Below, one piece after another: positions 9,963 to 37,942 of a stretch of DNA of 39,326 nt. The DNA is taken from positions 1-39,326 of the forward strand of contig RBNJ01000145.1 of assembly GCA_003990765.1 (NCBI GenBank), given 5' to 3'. The translations under genes were made by a program, and so were the position numbers. Position 1 is the stretch's first letter; every line of letters starts with the position of its first letter. The notes below the pieces were generated by a model. The model was not told the DNA's origin. It saw nothing but the letters and a program-made list of their open reading frames with translations, and ran no database searches. This DNA comes from Jimgerdemannia flammicorona. Lineage: Eukaryota.

Positions 9963-12900
9963 AATGAATCCTTTCGTGGAGACTTTAGATGCAAACTGCA
10001 AACTGCCCTCCGAACCGTAGTAGCAAAACGCACCCTAATGAGTCCATCAGATACTGGATGAAATCACCCTGACCAAGAAGCAGGTAACGCTTGAGCGCAC
10101 GGAAATGTTCCATCAGCTTGTACTTGTTGGACAGCAGATCGAGCAAACGTCGGCTAGTTTCGGTATAGGCGGCATCGATCGAACTTTCGACGGTGACAAT
10201 GTCACCGTACTTTAGCACCTGGACTGCGGGTTATTGTTAAGTACTGCTCATACGGAATGGAAAACTGAATGGAATATGAAGAGTGCCTAATTGTATAACT
10301 TACGTCGGTCTGAGACTATGTCCCCTGGTTTCGATACGAGGGTGTCATCATGGCAACTGTAACGGATGAAATTAAGCGACTTGCCGATGGAGAAAATCTG
10401 CAACAATATATGAATATCGCACTGAGTCATGGCTTAACATAGAGTCGTCAGATTTGAGATAAAAAACTGCAACCGAACCTTTTGCGCCAGCGCCTTCCCG
10501 ATGAAACTCGGTAACATATCTTCCCTCATCGAGTATTTCCGTAGCCACAATTCCTCCTCTTGCACGCTGTCGTCGCACGCAACAAAGAACTCGTTGTAGG
10601 GATCTTCGAGCTCGCCTTCGTAGATCCAGCGTTGCAACATCTCGTAAAAGGGCTTCGAGACCTGTAAATAAATAACGCGAAAACCAGAACGAAGTCGAAT
10701 GAAGGTAGGAAACCAACGAAAAACAATGGATCAGTCAAGTTGAATAAATATGCGGACACTCATATTGCATATGTAAGTTGACATTTGAGAGATACATTAC
10801 GTCTTCCAATAGGTGGTTGATGAAGTTGTGGATGAAAGGGTCGCCATGACTGGTGTAACCGTAGATAGTATTCACAAGTTGGCCGCCTTTTTGCTCTGGC
10901 AGTAGTCCAAAACATAATATTGAAATTAAAACTAGTAAGTGATCACACCAAACACCTAGCACCTTTACCGGCCACGAATCGATGCTTCTTTATAAATCCG
11001 TAACCTACCCGCACATACGTCGACCAAAACGCTCATCAGTCTCAATCTTTGCATGGAGTCCTGCGTCCAGACCAGCAGCCGCTTCAAGCTGAGCCCCTTG
11101 GTGGTCACAGAACCGCCACGATTACTCGCGTCGTCCTTTGCAATTTGCGCCTCCAGTACCGCGATCAGGCGGTAGTAGTCTGTGAGCTCTCGCTGTAATG
11201 CGGAGCAGAAACTCTGTACAGGATGCCAGTTGCATAATGTTTAAGTCGAGTATTCAGATCTCATAAGTGATGATGAGGGACTAAATAGATCTTGCAAAAC
11301 TGACAAAAACACCAACCTGACCCACGAGGCCGATGGATGTATCGTCGGCCCGAACCCGAACAAACATATGCACTCGCTTGTAAAGCCACCCAAGCTCGGA
11401 CAACCGATGAATAAGGTCTCGTGTCGAACGTGGTATAGCCACCTGGACAAAGGCATATTTAGACAAAAATGAATCATGTTGCTAGGACACGTAATCGTCG
11501 CACAAGGTCCTCCCATTCGATTCAACCGCATCTGGTCATATACAGACACGGAGAGAACATCGTTATTTACTATTCTCAATGGAGGTATGACAGACCTTGT
11601 TATCAATAACGTAAGAACCCGCATCCTCGGCGAACTTGACGTACCGCCCGTCGATCCCCTGGAACATAAAAATAGCGTCCCGTAGCAACGCCGTCTCAGA
11701 AACCTCGTAGGTCGCTGTATGAAGCAATGAAGATAATAATCAGGAAGTGTATCGCACGATCAGCAATGTGGTACTAAGCCCAAGGCATCACTAGATTATC
11801 AGATACTACAAAAACTACCATCAGCCCTCGAACACTTACAATCCCCAGCGGCCAGGTACTGCTTATAAGCAGCCAACCCAGAAAGCTGCGAATCCTTGGA
11901 GGACTTGGACGGTTGCGGTTGTGGAGAATTCGCCTGGCTGTCATCGTTGTTACGCTGATTGCCGAATATGCGCGCGCTCGACCTTGGGTCTCCGTCCATA
12001 CGTTGGTTGGGCGCGGCTGCCGGTGAGATGTTCTGCAAGCCCATGGCGGCGAAGGTTTGTTCTACGGGCTGCTGAGACCATCAGTGACAGGAACGGATTA
12101 TGTGGATCTTTGTTTGCGATGAGGTGATCTGGCGGTAACATATAATGACACAACGGAGAACAGCATGAGGTGCAGGATAAAAATATTGGACTCACGGCCG
12201 AATCCGCCAATGAATTGAACTCCATGGAATGCGACGAGGGTTTCTCGCTCGCTGAAAGTAGGAAGTACATGATTGCCCATCTCCGTGTCAGCGTCGTCTA
12301 ATGAACGGAACCCCATAATTGTATGAATATTTCCAATCACATCGAATTTCGTCGGTTTATAAAACCCGCCCAAACCCCTTATCCATAAAACGTGACATTC
12401 TTGTTTTAAAAATTCGACGTAATAGAACCATATCTTTGTGCTGTCATGGATACCTGGGATGAAAGCTTGCCGTAGAGATTCGAAAATCTTATTGCCTTTG
12501 TTGAAGATCTTTGTTCTCGGATTACTGTAATGTACAATGATGGGGTGGATAAGCGTCATGTCATAAAATGGTGGTGGAGAGTGATATCGAAGCATTTAGG
12601 CGTAATAACGAAACTCACGTTTCTTTTTGATTTGGTCAACGAGGTGCATCTCGTCTGTTACCACAGAAGGAGTAAGCCGACTGTCGCATAGAATGATTGC
12701 CGTTAGAGAAGTTACCAAGCGGTGGAGCTCAATGTGGAACCCGTCTCCAGACTTCTGCATACTCTTACCTCCCAAGGATCCTCAGCGCGTGTTTGTAGAT
12801 CTCCTTCACTTTCGTGTCGCCCGCAGCGCCATTCCTTGCCGAGTCGGCATTCGTGGCGATACTGATGCCGAGCGAGGCGTACGGCGACCGATCGGCTCCG

Positions 12901-13228: not shown

Positions 13229-13969
13229 ATGCTCGCTTCATTGTATCCACTTTCACGCAGAACCTGTCCTCGCCTACTTCATATCCGTCCACTGTCCTCA
13301 CCCTTTGTCCCCCCGTCATTCCTTCTCCGTCCGTCCGCGTCTCGGTTCTATGCTTCCGCCCAAGCCACCACCAAGGACCTCTCGTCCTCCCGAAAATCCC
13401 TTGATAACAAAAGTGGCGGCATGTACGCCCTTGCCGTCTTCATCACCATGGTCGGCCTCTCCTATGCCTCTGTCCCTCTCTACCGCATCTTCTGCGCCGC
13501 CGTCCCAGGATTCAGCGGCACTCCTGGCACTGCCGACTCCAGCCGTCTCGAGCCCGACCGCCTCGTCCCCGCCACCAATTTCGGTCGTCGCATCCGCATC
13601 ACTTTCGCCTCCAACATATCCGATGCATTGCAGTGGGCGTTTAAGCCCGAGCTTCGGGAGATCCGCGTGCTCCCCGGCGAGACCGCTCTGACCTTCTACA
13701 AGGCCAAGAACAAGAGCGACGAGGACATCGTGGGGATCGCGACGTACAATGTGACCCCACAGAAGGCGGCAAAGTATTTCAACAAGATCCAATGCTTCTG
13801 CTTTGAGGAACAGAAGTTGAGGGCGGGCGAGGAGGTCGACATGCCCGTTTTCTTTTACATTGACCCAGATTTTATGAACGATCCGTACATGAAGGACGTT
13901 AATACTGTGACCTTGAGTTACACCTTCTTTAATGCTAAATACGCCAAGAACTTGGCACATCAGTCGTAG
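13229..13969 (+). CDS. COX11: Cytochrome c oxidase assembly copper chaperone Cox11 (single exon)
   Basis: Arg/Ser-rich mitochondrial presequence, TM helix with YASVPLYRIFC, YFNKIQCFCFEEQKL, VDMPVFFYIDPDF, TLSYTFF. Confidence 0.97.
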   Translation: MLASLYPLSRRTCPRLLHIRPLSSPFVPPSFLLRPSASRFYASAQATTKDLSSSRKSLDNKSGGMYALAVFITMVGLSYASVPLYRIFCAAVPGFSGTPGTADSSRLEPDRLVPATNFGRRIRITFASNISDALQWAFKPELREIRVLPGETALTFYKAKNKSDEDIVGIATYNVTPQKAAKYFNKIQCFCFEEQKLRAGEEVDMPVFFYIDPDFMNDPYMKDVNTVTLSYTFFNAKYAKNLAHQS

Positions 13970-17533: not shown

Positions 17534-18065
17534 TGTGTAAGACCATTTCGATGTTGCAAAAGTCGCGTCCATCATAACACACCTAGGCAATGACGTCAAT
17601 AATGGGGCGTCACGAACCGTCACAATACTTTTTCTTTTTTTTTTTTCTTCTTTCTTTTAAACCTTCAAAGATCCAAACTGGTAACCGTTAGCATTTCGGC
17701 CATATGAATCCCCAAGTACCAACTCCCGGTAATTCATTAGCCATCATACCCATTTCTATTTATTCACAATCGTTTTTCTGTTGAATTCTTCTCTATTCTG
17801 CTCTGATATTTCAACAATTTTTTAAGAAAAAAACATGAAAAAGGACAAAAGCGATGGCACATTTTTGTGTCTTGTGTGCGGCAGCGATGTTTGCCTATTG
17901 TATCTGCGAGGGAAGAAAAGCGAATAGGAACGATTGCCAGCCAAGTCCCAAATGACATTCCAGTGCTAGCGTTTGTCAGTTATTATATCAGCATTTGGTC
18001 TTGGGAAGCAATGCGATGGTTATGTAAATCTAACACCAGTAAGCAAGTGGAACACTTTGAAGGAT

Positions 18066-18154
18066 CTGTGGAACGCAATATGACAATTAAATAACAAGAT
18101 CGGTAAATTCATCATAGAGGTAGGTGAAAGTTGGGTAGCACACGGTCCGCTTAC
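18066..18154 (-). other. Candidate 3'UTR intron of the SR gene
   Basis: CTG|GTAAGC donor, pyrimidine-rich TTCCACAG acceptor, 89 nt long. Confidence 0.6.
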
Positions 18155-18198
18155 CAGTTAATACGGCCGCTCGATGTATCCACCCATCCAGGTAAGCC

Positions 18199-19790
18199 TC
18201 AATTTTCTTCCGCAGCAGGCGAGATAGACCTGTCACGCACCTCCTCATCCTCATCCTGAGTCACTCTCTTAAGTTCTTCTATAGGCGAGCGCGAACGCGG
18301 GGACCTGGACCTGCCACGCTTCTCCACATCTGATGCCGGAGACCGAGAACGAGAGCCACGACTACGGCTGCCGCTACGGCTGCGGCTGCGGCTGCGGCTG
18401 CTACGGCTGCGATCACGACGGCTACCCTCGTCGCGGCTCCTTCGATGGTGCGATGAGGACTTGAGCCTGGGTGAAGCGGATCGCGAGCGAGACTTTCTGC
18501 GGCTCTTGTTACGCCTCTTGGGCGGGCTGCGAGAGTCCGAGCGACTGCGTGAGCGAGATGAACGGTGGCGGTGGTGGCGAGACCTTGACCTACTGCGTGT
18601 ATGTGGGGACGGTTACAATAGCACGGAGAAAGAAATGATGGGGGAGGGGGGGATGAAGAATAGCTCAATAAATACAGCCAAGTGAGCAATTCGAGCCTGC
18701 CCGTATTAGACGCATCACTCTGGAGGCCGCAAGATTGTGTGCGTAGGAACAGTGATAGGTGGCAGAACGACTTTGGGCCTTCCACAAGGGAGCTCAACCG
18801 GCCTCGGTCAGAGAGGAGGGCGGAGGAGTTGAAGTAGGTAGTACACTTGAAATGGCGGACATGACAAAACGGAAGTAGTAGATCCTGTGCAAAGCGACAG
18901 GGGTATGATTTGATCCAACGTTTACAGGAACGTTTGTGATTGAGGAAGGATGAGGGCTATTCCGAATTTACTGTCCATGTTCTCTCAATCTGTCCCACGT
19001 GGCTCTCGTCGATCGTTTAAATATATTTTTGTTATGAAGTGTGTTAGATTCGCATAATTACCTTTTCTTGCGCCTTCTTTCAATGCAATCTCTAGCCCAA
19101 TGTCCTTCCTTTCCACACTTGAAGCAATTTCTTTCATCACCACGTCGCTGGTTGCCCTTAGCAAGCTCGACGACGATGCGGCATCCGCTAATGCGCTATA
19201 GGAAGTTTTGTCAGCGATTTATGGATGAGCGAAACATAAATAAGAACTGAGCGTGTCGCCAATAATGTTGCTTTTCCCGGCTCCTTCTTCCATCCCTCAC
19301 TGTTCTGCGGTGTTATTTTTGTTATTTATTTATTTTTTTTTTGTCTTTTTCATAGAAAATGATAGGAAGAGGTTCATAAATGCATTTCAAGAGATTCTGC
19401 TCACCATGCCATCACATTCGCGAAGTGCGTCCTCTGCGTCACGCCTGTCATAAAACTCGACAAAACCGTACGCTAAACAACATTGAAGATGATGAAATGA
19501 AGTGAGCCCATTTATAACGTGTCAACGAACAGGGGGCGATTCCAGACTTGAAATTTCAATACTTGCAGTAGCTAGATCCACGCTATAACGATAAATTTGT
19601 TGAAGCACGGAGTATCAAAGCACGCTCAGTCCGACAATGCAAGGCGGAAATATGGGCGCAATTAGAGGGAGAAACAGGCATGATTTTGTACCTTGACGTC
19701 GCAACGGTTGATGCGGCCGTATTTGTAGAAGAGCTCTTCAACCTCGACGGTTCTGATGGAAGGCGGGAGACGACCGACGAACAAGGCCAT
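18199..19790 (-). CDS. SR splicing factor with RRM, CCHC zinc knuckle and RS domain (SRSF7/9G8/RSZ-like)
   Basis: Exons 19692-19790, 19567-19582, 19405-19472, 19062-19195 and 18199-18592 give MALFVGRL...DVKRGSSYSYGFVEFYDRRDAEDA...RIVVELAKG...CFKCGKEGHWARDC, then RS repeats. Confidence 0.92.
19567..19582 (-). other. 16-nt microexon with GC donor in the SR gene
   Basis: TATAG|CGTGGATCTAGCTACT|GCAAGT; needed to join a phase-0 donor to a phase-1 acceptor. Confidence 0.75.
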
Positions 19791-20471
19791 GGTAAGTGGT
19801 TGGTCTGAGAAGGAAAAAGGCAAAATCGATCTACAAGACTTGATCGGTTGTGTTTACTGTCCCAATTTTGCAGATGACGTAAGGTAACAAGCCACCGAAT
19901 TGGTTTCTTTTTGTTGCTAATTATATTAATCTCATTATCAAGTTCGTCATTGGCGATCATCATCTAGCACCTTTTATATTTCACTCATATTCAGAGAAAC
20001 TCGTGGCGAGTGTTATCTTATCCACGGAATATCTGGTATATGGTAAAGCTGTAGGATGGCAGAACAGTGACACTTTAGTATTTGCCGTGTGCAACTAAAT
20101 CTTCCTGATTCGCAATGAATTATTGTGCCTTGCATTTTGGGCGAGGCTTCCCAAGTTGCATCCACGGTCTTTGATTCGTCTTAGAAACATAATTGCCAAA
20201 CTAATCCACAAGAACAAAGGTTTAAATAGAATGACGTAATGCGTCCAGTCTCAGGCCTCGGAGACAGCATCAGAAGGAAGGCTCTCTTTCACCCCAAAGC
20301 GAGAGAGAATGGCGCAAATTTCTGCGATTCAACGTCGTCCGGGTATAATGTAAACCAATCCTTGATTTATGTACTTGGCTCGAAGCCACCCTCCCACATA
20401 CATACGGAGCAACGACCTTCGCGATCGCGCAACAAACTACCGTGATATCACCCCCAAAATTTCGCTTGACC

Positions 20472-32736: not shown

Positions 32737-33077
32737 GGGCTTTTTTTGTTGGGTGAAGAGGATGTGTGAGAAGAGACACGGCAGACCGCGAATTTATTAG
32801 CAGTCCATCAACAAAATTGGTGCACGCGCCACACGCACGCGCCACCATGGACGAGGCGTACATAGAACTTTATGAGTGGAGTGTTGGAGTGGTGTCTCTA
32901 TTCCTTCCTTTCTCCTTTCCGGGGCCGTCGGTGCTTCGTGCAGTGGTTGGATCATCATTACCTTGTCGCCTCCTTCGCAAAATATAATATGACCATAAAT
33001 GTCTTGTCACATGACCAGCCAGATCACGTACAAAGGTCCAAAGGTGTGCCTTCCTTCAGTCACAAACTCCTCATAAA

Positions 33078-34974
33078 ATGAGTAACAAGCGATTCCAAAA
33101 CATCAGCAAGTTCAGGAACTCGTTAGGCAAACCCGTAAAAAAAGAGGTACGTCCGCAGTGCTCATTCCCTCACGGACAACTTGGAACTGCGTCGTACTTA
33201 GCACTCCTTCCTCACTCTCTCCTTCAGCTTTGGTACTCGGACCTCCCAATCAACACGTCCAGCTCGTCTGAGGCATCCAACCTAATTGCCGTCAGCTCTA
33301 AATGGTTAGCCATCAAGTGGAATTTTGGAGGTTCGTTCAAACTGCCTAATATAATTTCTTTCGTTCTTTGATACTCTCATGCAGGCGTCTATCTCACTCA
33401 TTTTCATTTTCTACAGCCGGTGGTACTCTAGGTATTCTCCCCATTAATCAAGTCGGCAAGTTCAATGCCGCCGGCCCCGCGCCCCTTCTCGACGCTCATA
33501 CCTCCTCCTTAAGCGACTGGGATTTCTCCGAGTTTGATAGTGATTTGCTGGCGACAGGCGCTGAAGATGGGGTGGTAAATAAAAGCCGTATATATTATAT
33601 AATAATATGTGTATATTATTGACGACACGCGAACTGATTCCAATCGCTTCTTTACTATTATTCGCTTCAAAGGTGAAAATCTGGAAGATCCCAGAGCAAG
33701 GCCTTGAAGCCACGGATGAAGCTCAAAAACCCATCTTAACGATAACGGGTCACGGAAGAAGGGTTGAATCCCTGCGATTCCACCCAACGGCCGACAAGGT
33801 GTTCCTCGCAAACCGTTCTCCTAGTCCTTTGCTTTCCAAATGGAACCCACTAATTAATTGAATTGAAACTCCATGCCAACAGATATTGACCACGTCGTTC
33901 GCCAAAGAGATTAGAATTTGGGACATCAACGCTCAAACTGACCTCTCCAACCCATCACTCGTGCTCGCCAATCATGGCGACATCGTGCAGTCATTTGCGT
34001 GGAAGGGTGACGGGTCTTTGCTTGGGTCCACTTCAAAGGATTTGATAGTTAGAGTATGGGATCCTAGAGTAAACCCTGGAGAGGCCGTTACCGTAAGTAT
34101 TTTTTATTGCGCACTTGGTAATCATGTAATATCAGGTATTCTGACTCAAAAATATTTGTTTTGTTCTACGTGATCTTATTGCTCTTTTTATGCAGTCTGG
34201 CAAGAGCCACCAGGGCCCCAAAGCTTCTCGCGTCACGTGGCTTGGGAACCGCGACCAGATGCTCACGACCGGTTACGACAAGGTTGATGATACACCATCT
34301 TCACCCTCTTCGCTCTTAATTTTTACTGGAATTTGACATTTTGCTTTACCATTTTCAAATAGATGCGATACCGTCAATACTCGCTTTGGGACGTACGCGA
34401 CCTCTCCAAACCAATTGTTATGAATACAATGGACGCAGGGACGGGATTGATCATTCCGCTCTTCGATGAGGACACGAATAAGCTGTTTTTGATCGGAAAG
34501 GTAATTCTAATCTGCAAATCTGTTTTTCGACCTTCTCACAATTAACAATCGCATTTGCGATCAAACCATACAGGGCGACGGAACGATAGGATCCATAGAG
34601 ATTAGTGAGGACCTGAAACCGAGCATCGAAGCTAGTAGGCCCTGCTCTACCACCGTCCCACAATACGGCGCCGCATTGCTGCCGAAACGATTGTTGGACG
34701 TGATGCAGGCCGAAATTGCACGGTTGATGGTAGTCACGGCGAACGCAATCGTCCCGGTGTCGTTCGACATACCGAGGAAGGTCAGTTGAGAATGTTGTTT
34801 TGAGGGATGATGAAGTGAGGTGGTACAGTTGACGACAGCACAGGCCCAGGAACGAAGAGTTTAAAGTCAGACGTTTGTTTCTGAATAGCAATATCTCGAT
34901 TTCCATGCGGAACTTTTTCCGGATACGAAAGGAGATGGTAAATTTATTTGCGTGCATTCAGTCTAAGTAGATTT

Positions 34975-35010
<36 letters not shown>

Positions 35011-37942
35011 TTCAACTCAATTACCACGTAAACCGATATCAAATGGCCATATTTATTAGTTCCAGCGTTGACCGCCGCCGAATGGCTCACGGGAGAAACA
35101 AAACTCGTCGCCAAGGTCTCTTTGGACCCCAAAAACAAGAAGCCTCAACAATTGCCTGCCTCGAGTACCACATCAGTAATATCACCCCCCGCAACGACAC
35201 AGACGCCGACTCAGGCCCCCATTCCCGCCGCCACATCCTCACTAGCACCACAGGCCCCAGTAGCTGCAATACCTACCGTACAAGGCACTGTTAACACTGC
35301 AGTGACATCGCCAACAATTCCTTTATCGCCGATAACCGTCACCTCACCCACTGCTGCCTCGCGCTTCGCCCCAACTCGGACGTCGTATTATCGCTATATC
35401 GAGGGCAAACCCTATCACCCCAGTCAGCATTACGACGATCTCCGGGGCCTAAGCACTAACAAAAGCAGCGAATTCGATTTGATTCAGGTGGGGTTACGCA
35501 TATGCTTTTTTTTTTTTTTGGCGAAAATCTGGGATTGCTATTTGTTCCTTTACCTCATTGATCACTACCCCCTCTCGCCTTCTGTCCATATCCTTTGTCC
35601 TTCCCACGAAAGGTGAACCGTCTCTTCATTGCGGTCACTCTCTCGGGAGCCGGTGGCCGGATCGGCATCTTCCCAGTGAGCAAGCCTGGCAGATTACCCG
35701 TGAAAATATCGGCCGTTATGTGCAGTGCCGAGGTGACGGATTTCAAATTTGATCCGTTTGATCCGACTGTGCTTGTTACTTGTAGGTCTTGTGCAGGCTT
35801 TCGATCATGCAATATTCGGATGATGTGTCATCATCATATGGTGATAGTGACAGTGTGAGTGTATTGACTGTTCTTTTCATTGCAGCTTCTGATGACGCTA
35901 AGATCAGAGTATGGAAAATTCCCGAAGAGGGTCTTGTTGATGACGTTGCGGAACCGACCGCCGTGCTTTCAGGTATTTATCTAAGCGAATAGCTCTTTCT
36001 ACTCCTTTAATACAACGATTCCATAAGGTGGATTCCACAATTACCTGTCTATTGTACTTGTTGATTTAATAAATAGCTCCTCATATGGACCGGATCTCGC
36101 ACCTGGTCTTTAACCCAACGGTCAAGAACGTGCTTCTCTCGGCCTCCGCCGACCGGGGTAATTCAACGATTCGAATCTGGGATATTGAAGCAAGGAAGGA
36201 GAAAATCGCATTGACAGGATCTCATAATGATGTGGTAAGTCATGGGTTATGGCTTCCGTTTGGTGTAGGTTGATATCGTTACGGAAAACAACGATATCCA
36301 TGCACTTTTCTTCAGATCTATAGCGCCATATGGAGCTATGATGGGCAATTAATCGCGACCACCAGCAAGGACAAGAAGGTGCGGATATTTGATGCGCGGA
36401 CGAAAGAGAAAATCACGGTTCGTTACCACTTAATTTCTTGGAAATATGACCCTGGCATCGATGCTCCAATTGGCATATTATAAGTTGATGGCACTGATTT
36501 CACGGACTGCCATGCAGGAGGGGCCCAGCCACGACAGTGTCCGAGCGTCACGTTTAGTATGGCTTGGGGAAACTGGCAGACTTGCCAGCATTGGCTTCGG
36601 AAGGTTAGCCTTTTTTTTTTTTTTTCATCGTTTGGGTGATCACCTGTGTTCACCATGTTGTATCATTTTCCATTGTTTACAGGGGTTCGTCGCGAGAAAT
36701 TATCGTGTATAATACCGCCGATTTATCGACAGGAGCCGTCGATAAGAAGTCAATAGACGTATCCCCCAGCTCAATGGTGCCATATTATGACACTGATTGC
36801 TCAATTCTGTACCTTGCTGGTAGCGTATGTTGGCAATTTCAAATTATTCTCATTCAAGAACTGTTGATACGCTCGAAATAAATCTGATGTTATCCCTGAA
36901 CTTGTGCTACGATGTTAGGGGGACCGATCGATACATACCTACGAGGTTACTATTCACCCTTCCAACTCGGGGAACAAGGTTCCCATCATCAATTCTCTGC
37001 CCACTGTCGAATTGCTGACCCTTCAACAAGGCTTTGCCTTCACGCCTAAACGACATTGCAATGTGAGAGCCGTCGAAATAGCCAAAATGTACCGGCTCAC
37101 CCCTACGAGCGTTGAAACCATCGGAGTGAATGTGCCTAGGTCGAGGGTGAGTGGGTTTTGTCTGAAGAGCTTACTTCCATATGTTTTTTAGTCTTTGATG
37201 GATTTCGATCTCAACCTTCTAACTTGACGTGATCAGACTGAATTCTTCCAAGACGACATCTTCATCCCCACTCATGACATTGAGAATCCATCTTTGGACT
37301 CTGTTGCATGGTTTGCCGGGGAAAACAAAGAACTTCGTCGTGTGGATCTGAGACCGGTTGATATGACTCCCTGTATGTCGACTGGGTCTCGCGTTGAATT
37401 GTGGTCAGTGAGATTCGGTAATTGAAATTTTCTCTCAACTACTAATTGGCTTATTGTGGCAAATAGTATCACAGGCACCTCCCCCGGTAATCGCGCATAA
37501 GAAAGAGGTTGTCCGCGAAACCATCAATTCCAACGTGACTTCCTCGAATGACCAGGTGCGGATGTTACCTTTGAAACATGGACACACGCACAAAGAAAGA
37601 AAAGAAACGAAACGAAAAGCTATGGGAAGGAACGCTGATATTTTCGATCATATTGAAAACAAATTGGGGGTTTAGATTACTAGCTATCGGAGCAGTTTGC
37701 ATATGTAATCGGCGCTTCACATTAATTCTGTTGCCTTTTTTTTTTTTTCAGTTCAAAAATATGCTCAACACAGACAAGAGCACTGACCAAGAGAACAGCG
37801 ATGATCTTCCGCAGAATGCTTTGGAAGGAGTTGCAGACGAGGAGTGGGTGAGTAGGCATTTCTTCGTTTTTCATATATTTAGACCTACCATGTATTCACG
37901 ATTTTCTGGCCTTTCGACTATTTGCGTACACAGGACGATTGA
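33078..37942 (+). CDS. CORO7: Tandem (type III) coronin, coronin-7/POD-1-like, multi-exon
   Basis: SKFRN N-terminus and two coronin WD40 propellers (LLATGAEDGVVKIWKIP; DFKFDPFD...DDAKIRVWKIP). Pro/Thr-rich linker, VPRSRTEFFQDDIF, acidic end EGVADEEWDD*. Confidence 0.9.

Follow-up and report, generated by a model that had tools for sequence, protein, structure and literature searches.

How can an RRM be read across two exons whose splice phases disagree, and does the pair of overlapping donors found at that point control how much of the protein is made? These questions are raised by a minus-strand SR-type gene in the window analysed here, that is, the whole 39,326-nt stretch of Jimgerdemannia flammicorona DNA. 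We consider it fairly probable, at roughly 0.7, that the locus is an intact five-exon gene for an SR-type splicing factor, in which a 16-nt microexon is constitutive and is followed by an ordinary GC-AG intron. GC-type splice sites are a rare yet well-known kind, and the proposed GT switch four bases away is probably a by-product of the normal splice-site consensus.

Gene model and protein domains

The gene, located on the minus strand at 19790-18199, encodes a 236-aa SR-type protein that combines an RRM, one CCHC zinc knuckle and an RS domain. The coding sequence amounts to 708 nt (236 codons), a sum that is reached only when the 16-nt exon is included. Its elements, together with the sites discussed below, are as follows (a slash marks the exon-intron boundary).

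19692..19790, minus strand: exon 1, 99 nt and 33 codons, with ATG at 19790-19788 and the RNP2 motif LFVGRL; ends in phase 0 on ..DVK, donor AAG/GTACAA
19583..19691, minus strand: intron 1, 109 nt, GTACAA...TTATAG, with CTTCAAC, some 18 nt before its 3' end, as candidate branch site
19567..19582, minus strand: predicted microexon, 16 nt, five codons and the first base of a Ser codon; acceptor TTATAG, donor ACT/GCAAGT
19561..19566, minus strand: GC-type 5' splice site GCAAGT, in the context ACT/GCAAGTAT
19557..19562, minus strand: overlapping GT site GTATTG, in the context CAA/GTATTG, 4 nt downstream of the GC site
19473..19566, minus strand: intron 2, 94 nt, GC-AG, acceptor TGTTTAG, candidate branch sites GCTCACT and CTTCAAT
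19405..19472, minus strand: exon 3, 68 nt, starting in phase 1, with the RNP1 core YGFVEF and the RDAEDA helix
19448..19450, minus strand: TGA that, in the isoform translation, is in frame only with the +4 GT donor
19196..19404, minus strand: intron 3, 209 nt, GTGAGC...CTATAG
19062..19195, minus strand: exon 4, 134 nt, the end of the RRM and one CCHC zinc knuckle
18593..19061, minus strand: intron 4, 469 nt, GTAATT...CGCAG, the longest of the gene
18199..18592, minus strand: coding part of exon 5, the RS domain, with the stop TGA at 18201-18199

The neighbouring gene encodes a Cox11 protein.

The predicted product has both hallmarks of SR proteins, an N-terminal RRM and a C-terminal RS domain. 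Manley and Krainer are said to have defined the class in 2010 by one or more N-terminal RRMs together with an RS domain of at least 50 aa and more than 40% RS content; the RS domain encoded by exon 5 spans 130 aa with 59% R+S and 46 RS/SR dipeptides, and its best 50-aa window reaches 76% R+S. In exon 4, Pfam detects zf-CCHC with an E-value of 4.7e-08, and the pattern C-X2-C-X4-H-X4-C occupies residues 24-37 of that exon; this single knuckle sits between the RRM and the RS domain, the arrangement that characterizes SRSF7 and the RSZ proteins. Comparison with solved structures splits the affinity of the RRM: for exon 1 the best match is RRM1 of SRSF1 (E 3.1e-07), and for exon 3 it is the RRM of SRSF6, followed by those of SRSF3 and SRSF7, with the SRSF1 RRM also matched.

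The microexon and its splice sites

The reading frames of exons 1 and 3 are fixed independently by Pfam matches to RRM_1, which cover positions 1-30 of the domain in exon 1 (E 3.4e-06) and positions 41-62 in exon 3 (E 2.8e-05). The first-pass annotation had described a phase clash between these exons, and its coordinates are confirmed in the sequence: the last codon of exon 1 is complete (phase 0), whereas the RNP1 exon begins in phase 1. The remedy that it proposed also stands, namely a 16-nt exon spliced at T/GCAAGT, with which the two frames agree. The flanking introns then measure 109 and 94 nt, and both lengths lie inside the range of 76-139 nt that holds 11 of the 13 training introns. 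In silico, the RRM is readable across the junction of exon 1 and the RNP1 exon only with 16 nt inserted. In this in-silico model the inserted exon has the properties of a microexon, being internal, 16 nt long against an upper bound of about 30 nt, and flanked by two spliceosomal introns; it codes for the loop between beta2 and beta3 of the RRM, just ahead of RNP1. Between the alignments of exons 1 and 3 it inserts six residues, and at the aligned chain positions of solved structures the corresponding RRM1 loop has 7 residues in SRSF1, PfSR1 and SR34 and 2 in SRSF6. Thus, the inserted loop fits the loop lengths of related RRMs, which we count in favor of the microexon.

Enumeration of the GT/GC-AG paths that are in frame and free of stops gave 32, the top three of which all use the acceptor at 19582 with the GC donor at 19566 and differ from each other only in the donor of exon 1. 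Paths restricted to GT donors require the donor GTTTCT (score -10.9), exons of 1 nt, or acceptors scoring -8.1 or -12.7. Two further candidates were considered and rejected: productive use of the GT at 19562, the sole in-frame path of which likewise needs GTTTCT and makes a 9-nt exon, and U12-type, AT-AC or nested-intron readings, for which a matching donor motif is absent from the sequence. With respect to omission of the microexon, skipping does shift the frame as had been claimed, but this frame is predicted to stay open as far as 18281-18279, in the last exon and with no junction downstream, and the skipped isoform would therefore be no classical NMD substrate.

The strength of the splice sites was scored with a PWM derived from 13 training introns in the window, a set that is small and partly selected by consensus; for 11 of them, chosen with the guidance of Pfam, the second-ranked candidate was taken in 2, for one of which the first-ranked candidate had a GC donor. 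The four splice sites flanking the microexon all score under the range of the training introns. The donor of intron 1 scores -1.05 and the GC donor -0.40 (with +1/+2 left unscored), compared with 0.62 to 9.04 for the 13 training donors, and the acceptors on either side score -1.5 and -1.5 against 0.4 to 11.0. These low scores would also fit inefficient or regulated splicing. The GT site at +4 scores -2.19.

Pairing with U1 was compared for the two overlapping donors. In the GC register, pairs form at +1 and at +3 to +8, for a total of 7 pairs, 6 of them contiguous, at -2.6 kcal/mol, and this is the strongest U1 duplex within 19585-19546. When the register is forced onto the GT site, 6 scattered pairs remain at +1.4 kcal/mol and +5G is lacking; forcing the register at the intron 1 donor gives -2.3 kcal/mol. 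The ranking in the first-pass annotation, a weak GC against a canonical GT, is thus inverted in every respect except the base at +2. Intron 2 moreover has the sequence features of a U2-type GC-AG intron, reading GCAAGTAT...TGTTTAG with CTCAC and TTCAAT motifs before the acceptor, and GC-AG introns make up 1.009% of annotated fungal introns according to Table 1 of PMC7072748.

Together, these observations suggest a simple scheme, in which the inclusion of the microexon, the choice of donor and the proportions of the products are inferred from sequence. Two short introns would flank a constitutive 16-nt microexon, and its GC donor would be an ordinary U2-type site of the compensated kind, the C at +2 being offset by perfect intron-side complementarity to U1 (AAGTAT, +3 to +8). 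U1, and by extension probably also U6, would dock in the GC register, so that, as we propose, most of the mRNA made is productive. Now and then cleavage would fall at +4 and lead to a premature stop, and the resulting transcripts would be cleared by NMD as splicing noise.

Alternative readings of the locus

Conceivably, this gene is regulated by unproductive splicing in which an intron is retained, instead of the +4 donor being used; the candidates are introns 1 and 2, both with weak sites, and the long intron 4. If intron 1 is retained, the predicted stop comes after 42 residues and leaves 3 junctions downstream; for intron 2 the figures are 41 residues and 2 junctions. The below-range scores of the sites around the microexon would be compatible with such an outcome. 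Furthermore, intron 4 measures 469 nt, compared with 76-209 nt for the other 12 training introns, and the relevant passages of PMC4379411 report that an unusually long intron is retained in the regulation of the fungal gene srp2. The case is nevertheless one of analogy only, with a PWM built on 13 introns, and we regard retention as an unlikely account of regulation at this locus.

Another possibility is that the locus is a pseudogene or carries an assembly indel, so that no splice correctly restores the frame and the microexon is an AG..GC pair that arose by chance. For comparison, the interior of the 219-nt interval between exons 1 and 3 was shuffled 3000 times with dinucleotides preserved. 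A stop-free AG..GY mini-exon of some kind that restores the frame arose in 2925 of the 3000, and therefore the existence of such an exon is by itself no proof; mini-exons whose two sites equal or exceed the observed scores by the crude PWM appeared in 327/3000, and in-frame mini-exons with a consensus GYRAGT donor in only 60/3000. Accordingly, the case for the microexon stands on its necessity given the fixed frames, on its place in the best path and on its consensus donor, not on the statistics alone.

Searches of protein collections, which yielded no homologue for any exon, are compatible with a defective gene. Among longer proteins, exon 1 extended by 9 read-through codons gave 5 candidates, none at E <= 0.001, the exon 3 ORF gave 3 candidates at E up to 10, none of them scoring, and exon 4 gave no candidates. 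A HMMER search with exon 4 retrieved 2310 proteins at E <= 0.001, the best 150 of which are multi-zinc-knuckle proteins; a local phmmer run at E <= 10 found matches to exon 1 or exon 3 in 0 of these 150, and exon 4 is an unsuitable query for finding orthologues. The peptide motif of exon 3, written as a degenerate pattern, had no match in a genome collection of bacteria and archaea only. Against a pseudogene or indel, the other exons are intact, with RNP2, RNP1, a complete CCHC knuckle and a 130-aa RS domain uninterrupted by a stop, and introns 3 and 4 join their exons in matching phase. We consequently hold a broken gene to be improbable.

The first-pass annotation had interpreted the GC/GT pair as a compact tandem-donor switch, that is, a selected device by which the SR protein would move its own pre-mRNA to the GT site, creating an NMD target and setting its own level. 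The consequence that it assigned to the GT site is borne out by in-silico translation: use of the +4 donor makes a 20-nt exon and shifts the frame into the TGA at 19450-19448, after 47 residues, ahead of two exon junctions and 177 nt before the last one. This isoform is accordingly a predicted NMD target by position, since its stop precedes the last junction by more than the threshold of about 50 nt. GC donors are enriched among alternative introns, and their intrinsic strength is below that of GT donors, which could make leakage to a nearby GT greater than at a GT donor; the window PWM likewise rates the GC donor and its adjoining sites as weak. SR genes widely use unproductive splicing, and the relevant passages of PMC4379411 describe a case in srp2 of N. 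crassa in which the product is stabilised in an NMD-deficient strain.

The interpretation as a switch finds no support in closer inspection of the site. A GYNNGY motif is present at the exon end (GCAAGT, 19566-19561), and in the G[T/C]AAGT consensus the +4 GT is nothing more than the bases at +5/+6; it comes automatically with such a donor and is probably no separately evolved competitor. Indeed, a GT at +5/+6 recurs in 5 of the 13 other donors of the window. In humans, the delta-4 class is the commonest among tandem donors, and Table 1 of PMC2878309 lists 130,104 such sites, only 955 (0.7%) of them confirmed as alternative. The GT register pairs poorly with U1, as noted above, and the site has no evident structure: the 219-nt interval folds with an MFE of -36.3 kcal/mol (z = +1.16), with 181 of 200 shuffles folding at least as well. 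Rfam reports no family at gathering score in the whole window, and within 18000-20000 its 3 weak matches at E <= 1 all fall within the RS-coding repeats, far under gathering. Moreover, the mechanism documented for a fungal SR gene in the passages of PMC4379411 cited above is retention of a long intron, with no tandem donor. A selected switch thus appears quite improbable, and it is very improbable that an SRSF7/RSZ-like gene of an intron-rich, possibly early-diverging fungus regulates itself through a 4-nt choice between GC and GT at one U1 site.

Finally, frame restoration by a 16-nt extension of exon 1 to CCT/GTTTCT at 19675, with a single 203-nt intron and the loop VQNHAS, offers the sole single-intron path that is in frame and free of stops, has a GT donor and also gives a 236-codon reading frame, but its donor scores far under every training donor and makes 4 U1 pairs at +6.1 kcal/mol, and the far better AAG/GTACAA, TTATAG and GCAAGT signals would go unused, which makes this reading hardly credible.

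Significance and comparison with known systems

The proposed constitutive microexon, followed by its GC-AG intron, has practical implications. A 16-nt exon with a GC donor is likely to be overlooked by automatic gene callers, and without it a splicing factor would be annotated with a truncated or frameshifted RRM, whereas the corrected gene model gives a complete 236-aa protein with RRM, CCHC knuckle and RS domain. A tandem-donor switch, if true, would let a splicing factor of a little-known lineage regulate itself by very compact means, but is unlikely on present evidence; the GC/GT choice would then represent an autoregulatory poison event of minimal size, involving neither a poison exon nor a retained intron.

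With respect to domain architecture, the closest parallel is the sub-family of SRSF7 (9G8) and the plant RSZ proteins, which likewise combine one RRM, one CCHC zinc knuckle and an RS domain, and the SRSF3/SRSF7 RRMs are among the matches of exon 3; unlike in that sub-family, the best matches here are RRM1 of SRSF1 for exon 1 and RRM1 of SRSF6 for exon 3. The layout is of minor interest because the sub-family was absent from the fungi sampled in one survey (Richardson et al., 2011; PMC3173450). The unproductive splicing coupled to NMD that is known for SR genes, such as SRSF5 and the fungal srp2, also concerns SR splicing factors, and isoforms bearing premature stops are predictable here too. 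However, the known events are poison cassette exons, 3'UTR introns and, in the relevant passages of PMC4379411, fungal long-intron retention, none of these being a 4-nt donor shift.

The delta-4 tandem donors of the GYNNGY type in TassDB2 share with the present site two GY dinucleotides 4 nt apart, a second site that leads to a frameshift and predicted NMD, and the derivation of the class from the GTRAGT consensus, but here the upstream member is GC instead of GT. The microexon of Xlr2 in Trichoderma virens is similarly a very short internal exon, whose inclusion decides the coding of a nucleic-acid-binding domain and is reported as glucose-regulated in the relevant part of PMC11121469; in contrast to that gene, skipping here is predicted to give a frameshifted protein, not a second functional isoform. 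The U2-type GC-AG introns provide the nearest precedent for the splice site itself, with GC at +1/+2, a perfect match to the remaining consensus (AAGT, here AAGTAT), an AG acceptor and a short intron. The predicted donor differs from them in that the exon before it is 16 nt long and matches the consensus poorly on its side of the junction (ACT), and is otherwise indistinguishable from them in sequence.

Architecture of the SR-type splicing factor gene

The locus is intron-rich and eukaryotic (G+C 47%), with many short exons in the genes for cystathionine beta-synthase (CBS), PIG-S, V-ATPase C, a gamma-tubulin complex protein, an ADH-like protein, a 2OG oxygenase and THOC5, and it also encodes Cox11, apparently in a single exon (13229-13966, plus strand), and coronin-like proteins. 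Two stretches, 33015-34170 and 35032-35855 (plus strand), match coronin-type DUF1899; they lie about 2 kb from each other, enclose a WD40 match, and could represent a tandem pair of coronin-like genes or a single double-coronin gene. The five-exon model of the SR gene, which was read from the sequence and then checked by script, is as follows.

Features of the SR gene
Exon 1, 19790-19692, minus strand: 99 nt, ATG, 33 codons, phase 0 end, donor AAG/GTACAA
Intron 1, 19691-19583, minus strand: 109 nt
Microexon, 19582-19567, minus strand: 16 nt, donor ACT/GCAAGT
Intron 2, 19566-19473, minus strand: 94 nt
Exon 3, 19472-19405, minus strand: 68 nt, phase 1 start
Intron 3, 19404-19196, minus strand: 209 nt
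Exon 4, 19195-19062, minus strand: 134 nt
Intron 4, 19061-18593, minus strand: 469 nt
Exon 5, 18592-18202, minus strand: 391 nt, stop codon 18201-18199

Only with the 16-nt exon included does the model yield a coding sequence of 708 nt (236 codons). Pfam matches in exon 1 (RRM_1 positions 1-30, E 3.4e-06), exon 3 (RRM_1 positions 41-62, E 2.8e-05) and exon 4 (CCHC zinc knuckle, E 4.7e-08) fix the reading frames without any splice model, and the 130 residues from exon 5 are 59% Arg+Ser and include 46 RS/SR dipeptides. On this combination of RRM, zinc knuckle and RS-rich exon 5, the predicted product is an SR-type splicing factor with the same layout as SRSF7 and the plant RSZ proteins, a sub-family reported to be absent from the fungi sampled (PMC3173450). 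Despite this architecture, the nearest match is SRSF1 RRM1 for exon 1 and SRSF6 RRM1 for exon 3. Three word-indexed protein searches, one per exon, returned no homologue of exon 1, 3 or 4; an exhaustive HMMER search with exon 4 found multi-zinc-knuckle proteins only among the 150 matches listed, none of which matched either of the RRM exons 1 and 3; and a bacterial and archaeal genome collection, scanned with a degenerate pattern, gave no matches.

A probable 16-nt exon that restores the frame

The first-pass annotation described the microexon region with coordinates and consequences that are all correct in the sequence: exon 3 cannot be joined directly to exon 1 in frame, the 16-nt exon regains the frame, and use of a GT at 19562, 4 nt downstream of the GC donor (19566), would lengthen the exon to 20 nt and bring in a TGA at 19450-19448.

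Splice sites were scored with a position weight matrix (PWM) built from 13 introns of the window, namely introns 3 and 4 of the SR gene and 11 introns retained from 13 Pfam-guided ORF pairs after two ambiguous ones were dropped. For two of these 11, the second-ranked candidate was taken, the first-ranked donor being poor, and in one of the two the first-ranked candidate had a GC donor. In the gamma-tubulin complex gene (10895-11032, minus strand), the best candidate by Pfam continuity has a GC donor (TGA/GCGTTT, 11032 to 10931) and a GT candidate (CGG/GTAGGT, 11008 to 10895) was preferred; both junctions are candidates only.

A full enumeration of GT/GC-AG paths, restricted to those without a stop, with no intron shorter than 40 nt and with both the RNP1 core and the first 30 codons of exon 1 read in frame, yielded 32. 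The top three share the acceptor 19582 and the GC donor 19566 and differ solely in the exon 1 donor (19691 GT, 19679 GC or 19697 GT). The sole single-intron path lengthens exon 1 by 16 nt (19676-19691, minus strand) to CCT/GTTTCT, leaving a 203-nt intron; this donor is very poor, scoring -10.9 vs 0.62 to 9.04 for the training donors. In the remaining GT-only paths, an exon is 1 nt long or an acceptor scores -8.1 or -12.7.

The microexon model places six residues between the two Pfam-anchored segments, in agreement with the loop length of related solved RRMs: among chains matched by both exon 1 and exon 3, SRSF1 (7abg_A6, 1x4a_A, 6hpj_B), PfSR1 (2n3l_A) and SR34 (6x89_S5) have a 7-residue gap and SRSF6 (9r53_A) a 2-residue gap. 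The resulting introns of 109 and 94 nt have a size typical of the window: 11 of the 13 training introns span 76-139 nt. When the interior of the 219-nt interval was subjected to 3000 dinucleotide-preserving shuffles, some frame-restoring, stop-free AG..GY mini-exon arose in 2925, one whose two sites both equal or exceed the observed scores in 327, and one with a GYRAGT donor in 60. Thus, the microexon is supported by its necessity, by belonging to the top-ranked path and by having a consensus donor of a kind that chance seldom produces, and we consider it probable, though not proven, that it is real. For annotation, the useful point is that the RRM of this SRSF7/RSZ-like gene would include a 16-nt exon with a GC donor.

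Relative strength of the two donors

The GC donor had been regarded as weak and the GT as canonical, a ranking that is reversed apart from the +2 base. Pairing was evaluated against the U1 5'-end motif. The intron side of the GC site, ACT/GCAAGTAT, is its perfect complement save for the C at +2; this register forms 7 pairs, 6 of them contiguous, at a forced-register energy of -2.6 kcal/mol, and is the best U1 duplex within 19585-19546. The GT site, CAA/GTATTG, lacks G at +5 and forms 6 scattered pairs at +1.4 kcal/mol, and its PWM score is -2.19 vs -0.40 for the GC site (+1/+2 unscored for GC). The GT coincides with positions +5/+6 of the G(T/C)AAGT consensus; GT occupies these positions in 5 of 13 other donors of the window, and GY in 9. 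In TassDB2, delta-4 sites form much the largest class of human tandem donors (130,104, or 25.3% of tandem donors at 2-12 nt), of which only 955 (0.7%) are confirmed as alternative (PMC2878309).

All four sites flanking the microexon (19472-19691, minus strand) fall below the training range (donors -1.05 and -0.40 vs 0.62 to 9.04; acceptors -1.5 and -1.5 vs 0.4 to 11.0), a range that leans to consensus because the set is small, involved donor-based choices and includes introns of the SR gene itself. These low scores, unlike the other observations, could point to inefficient or regulated removal of introns 1 and 2; by script, their retention would lead to early stops after 42 and 41 residues, respectively. 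Strength lies on the exon side in the exon 1 donor and on the intron side in the GC donor, matching the two 5' splice-site classes of a LUC7 study, which states that most fungi favor the intron-side class and describes a strong exon-side bias as unusual for most of them (PMC11842720). The donors of the 13 sampled introns of the window do show a strong bias of that kind, with A at -2 in 11 and G at -1 in 10.

Probable constitutive splicing and candidate regulation

Most likely, with a probability of about 0.7, the microexon would be constitutively included through an ordinary GC-AG intron, with rare slippage to the +4 GT whose product would be removed by NMD; by script, the TGA of the slipped form lies upstream of two junctions, the last of them 177 nt away. 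Skipping of the microexon does shift the frame, as noted in the first pass, but the shifted frame meets no stop before 18281-18279, inside the last exon, so that the skipped isoform is not a classical NMD substrate.

If the gene is regulated, intron 4 (18593-19061, minus strand) may be a more conventional candidate than a 4-nt donor shift. Animal SR genes are regulated by unproductive splicing, and in ascomycetes and basidiomycetes an unusually long, stop-containing intron of srp2, the SRSF5 orthologue, is retained, the retained form being stabilized in an N. crassa NMD mutant, as reported in one study (PMC4379411). Intron 4 resembles that intron in its unusual length, being the longest of 15 introns examined (469 nt; the other 14 span 76-209 nt), and may hold a poison exon or be retained. 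RNA structure searches gave no sign of unusual folding in the 219-nt interval (z = +1.16; 181 of 200 shuffles fold at least as well) and no Rfam match at gathering score across the window, the three weak matches all lying in RS-coding repeats of the SR gene.

The initial proposal that the two donors form an autoregulatory switch, the GC register making protein and the GT register an NMD target, is not supported and is very improbable: the donor consensus by itself accounts for the arrangement, pairing in the GT register is poor and delta-4 pairs are seldom used alternatively. A keyword search of the open-access subset of the literature found no description of an SR gene with a delta-4 switch between GC and GT donors. 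GC-AG introns are an established minor class, accounting for 1.009% of annotated fungal introns in a survey (PMC7072748).
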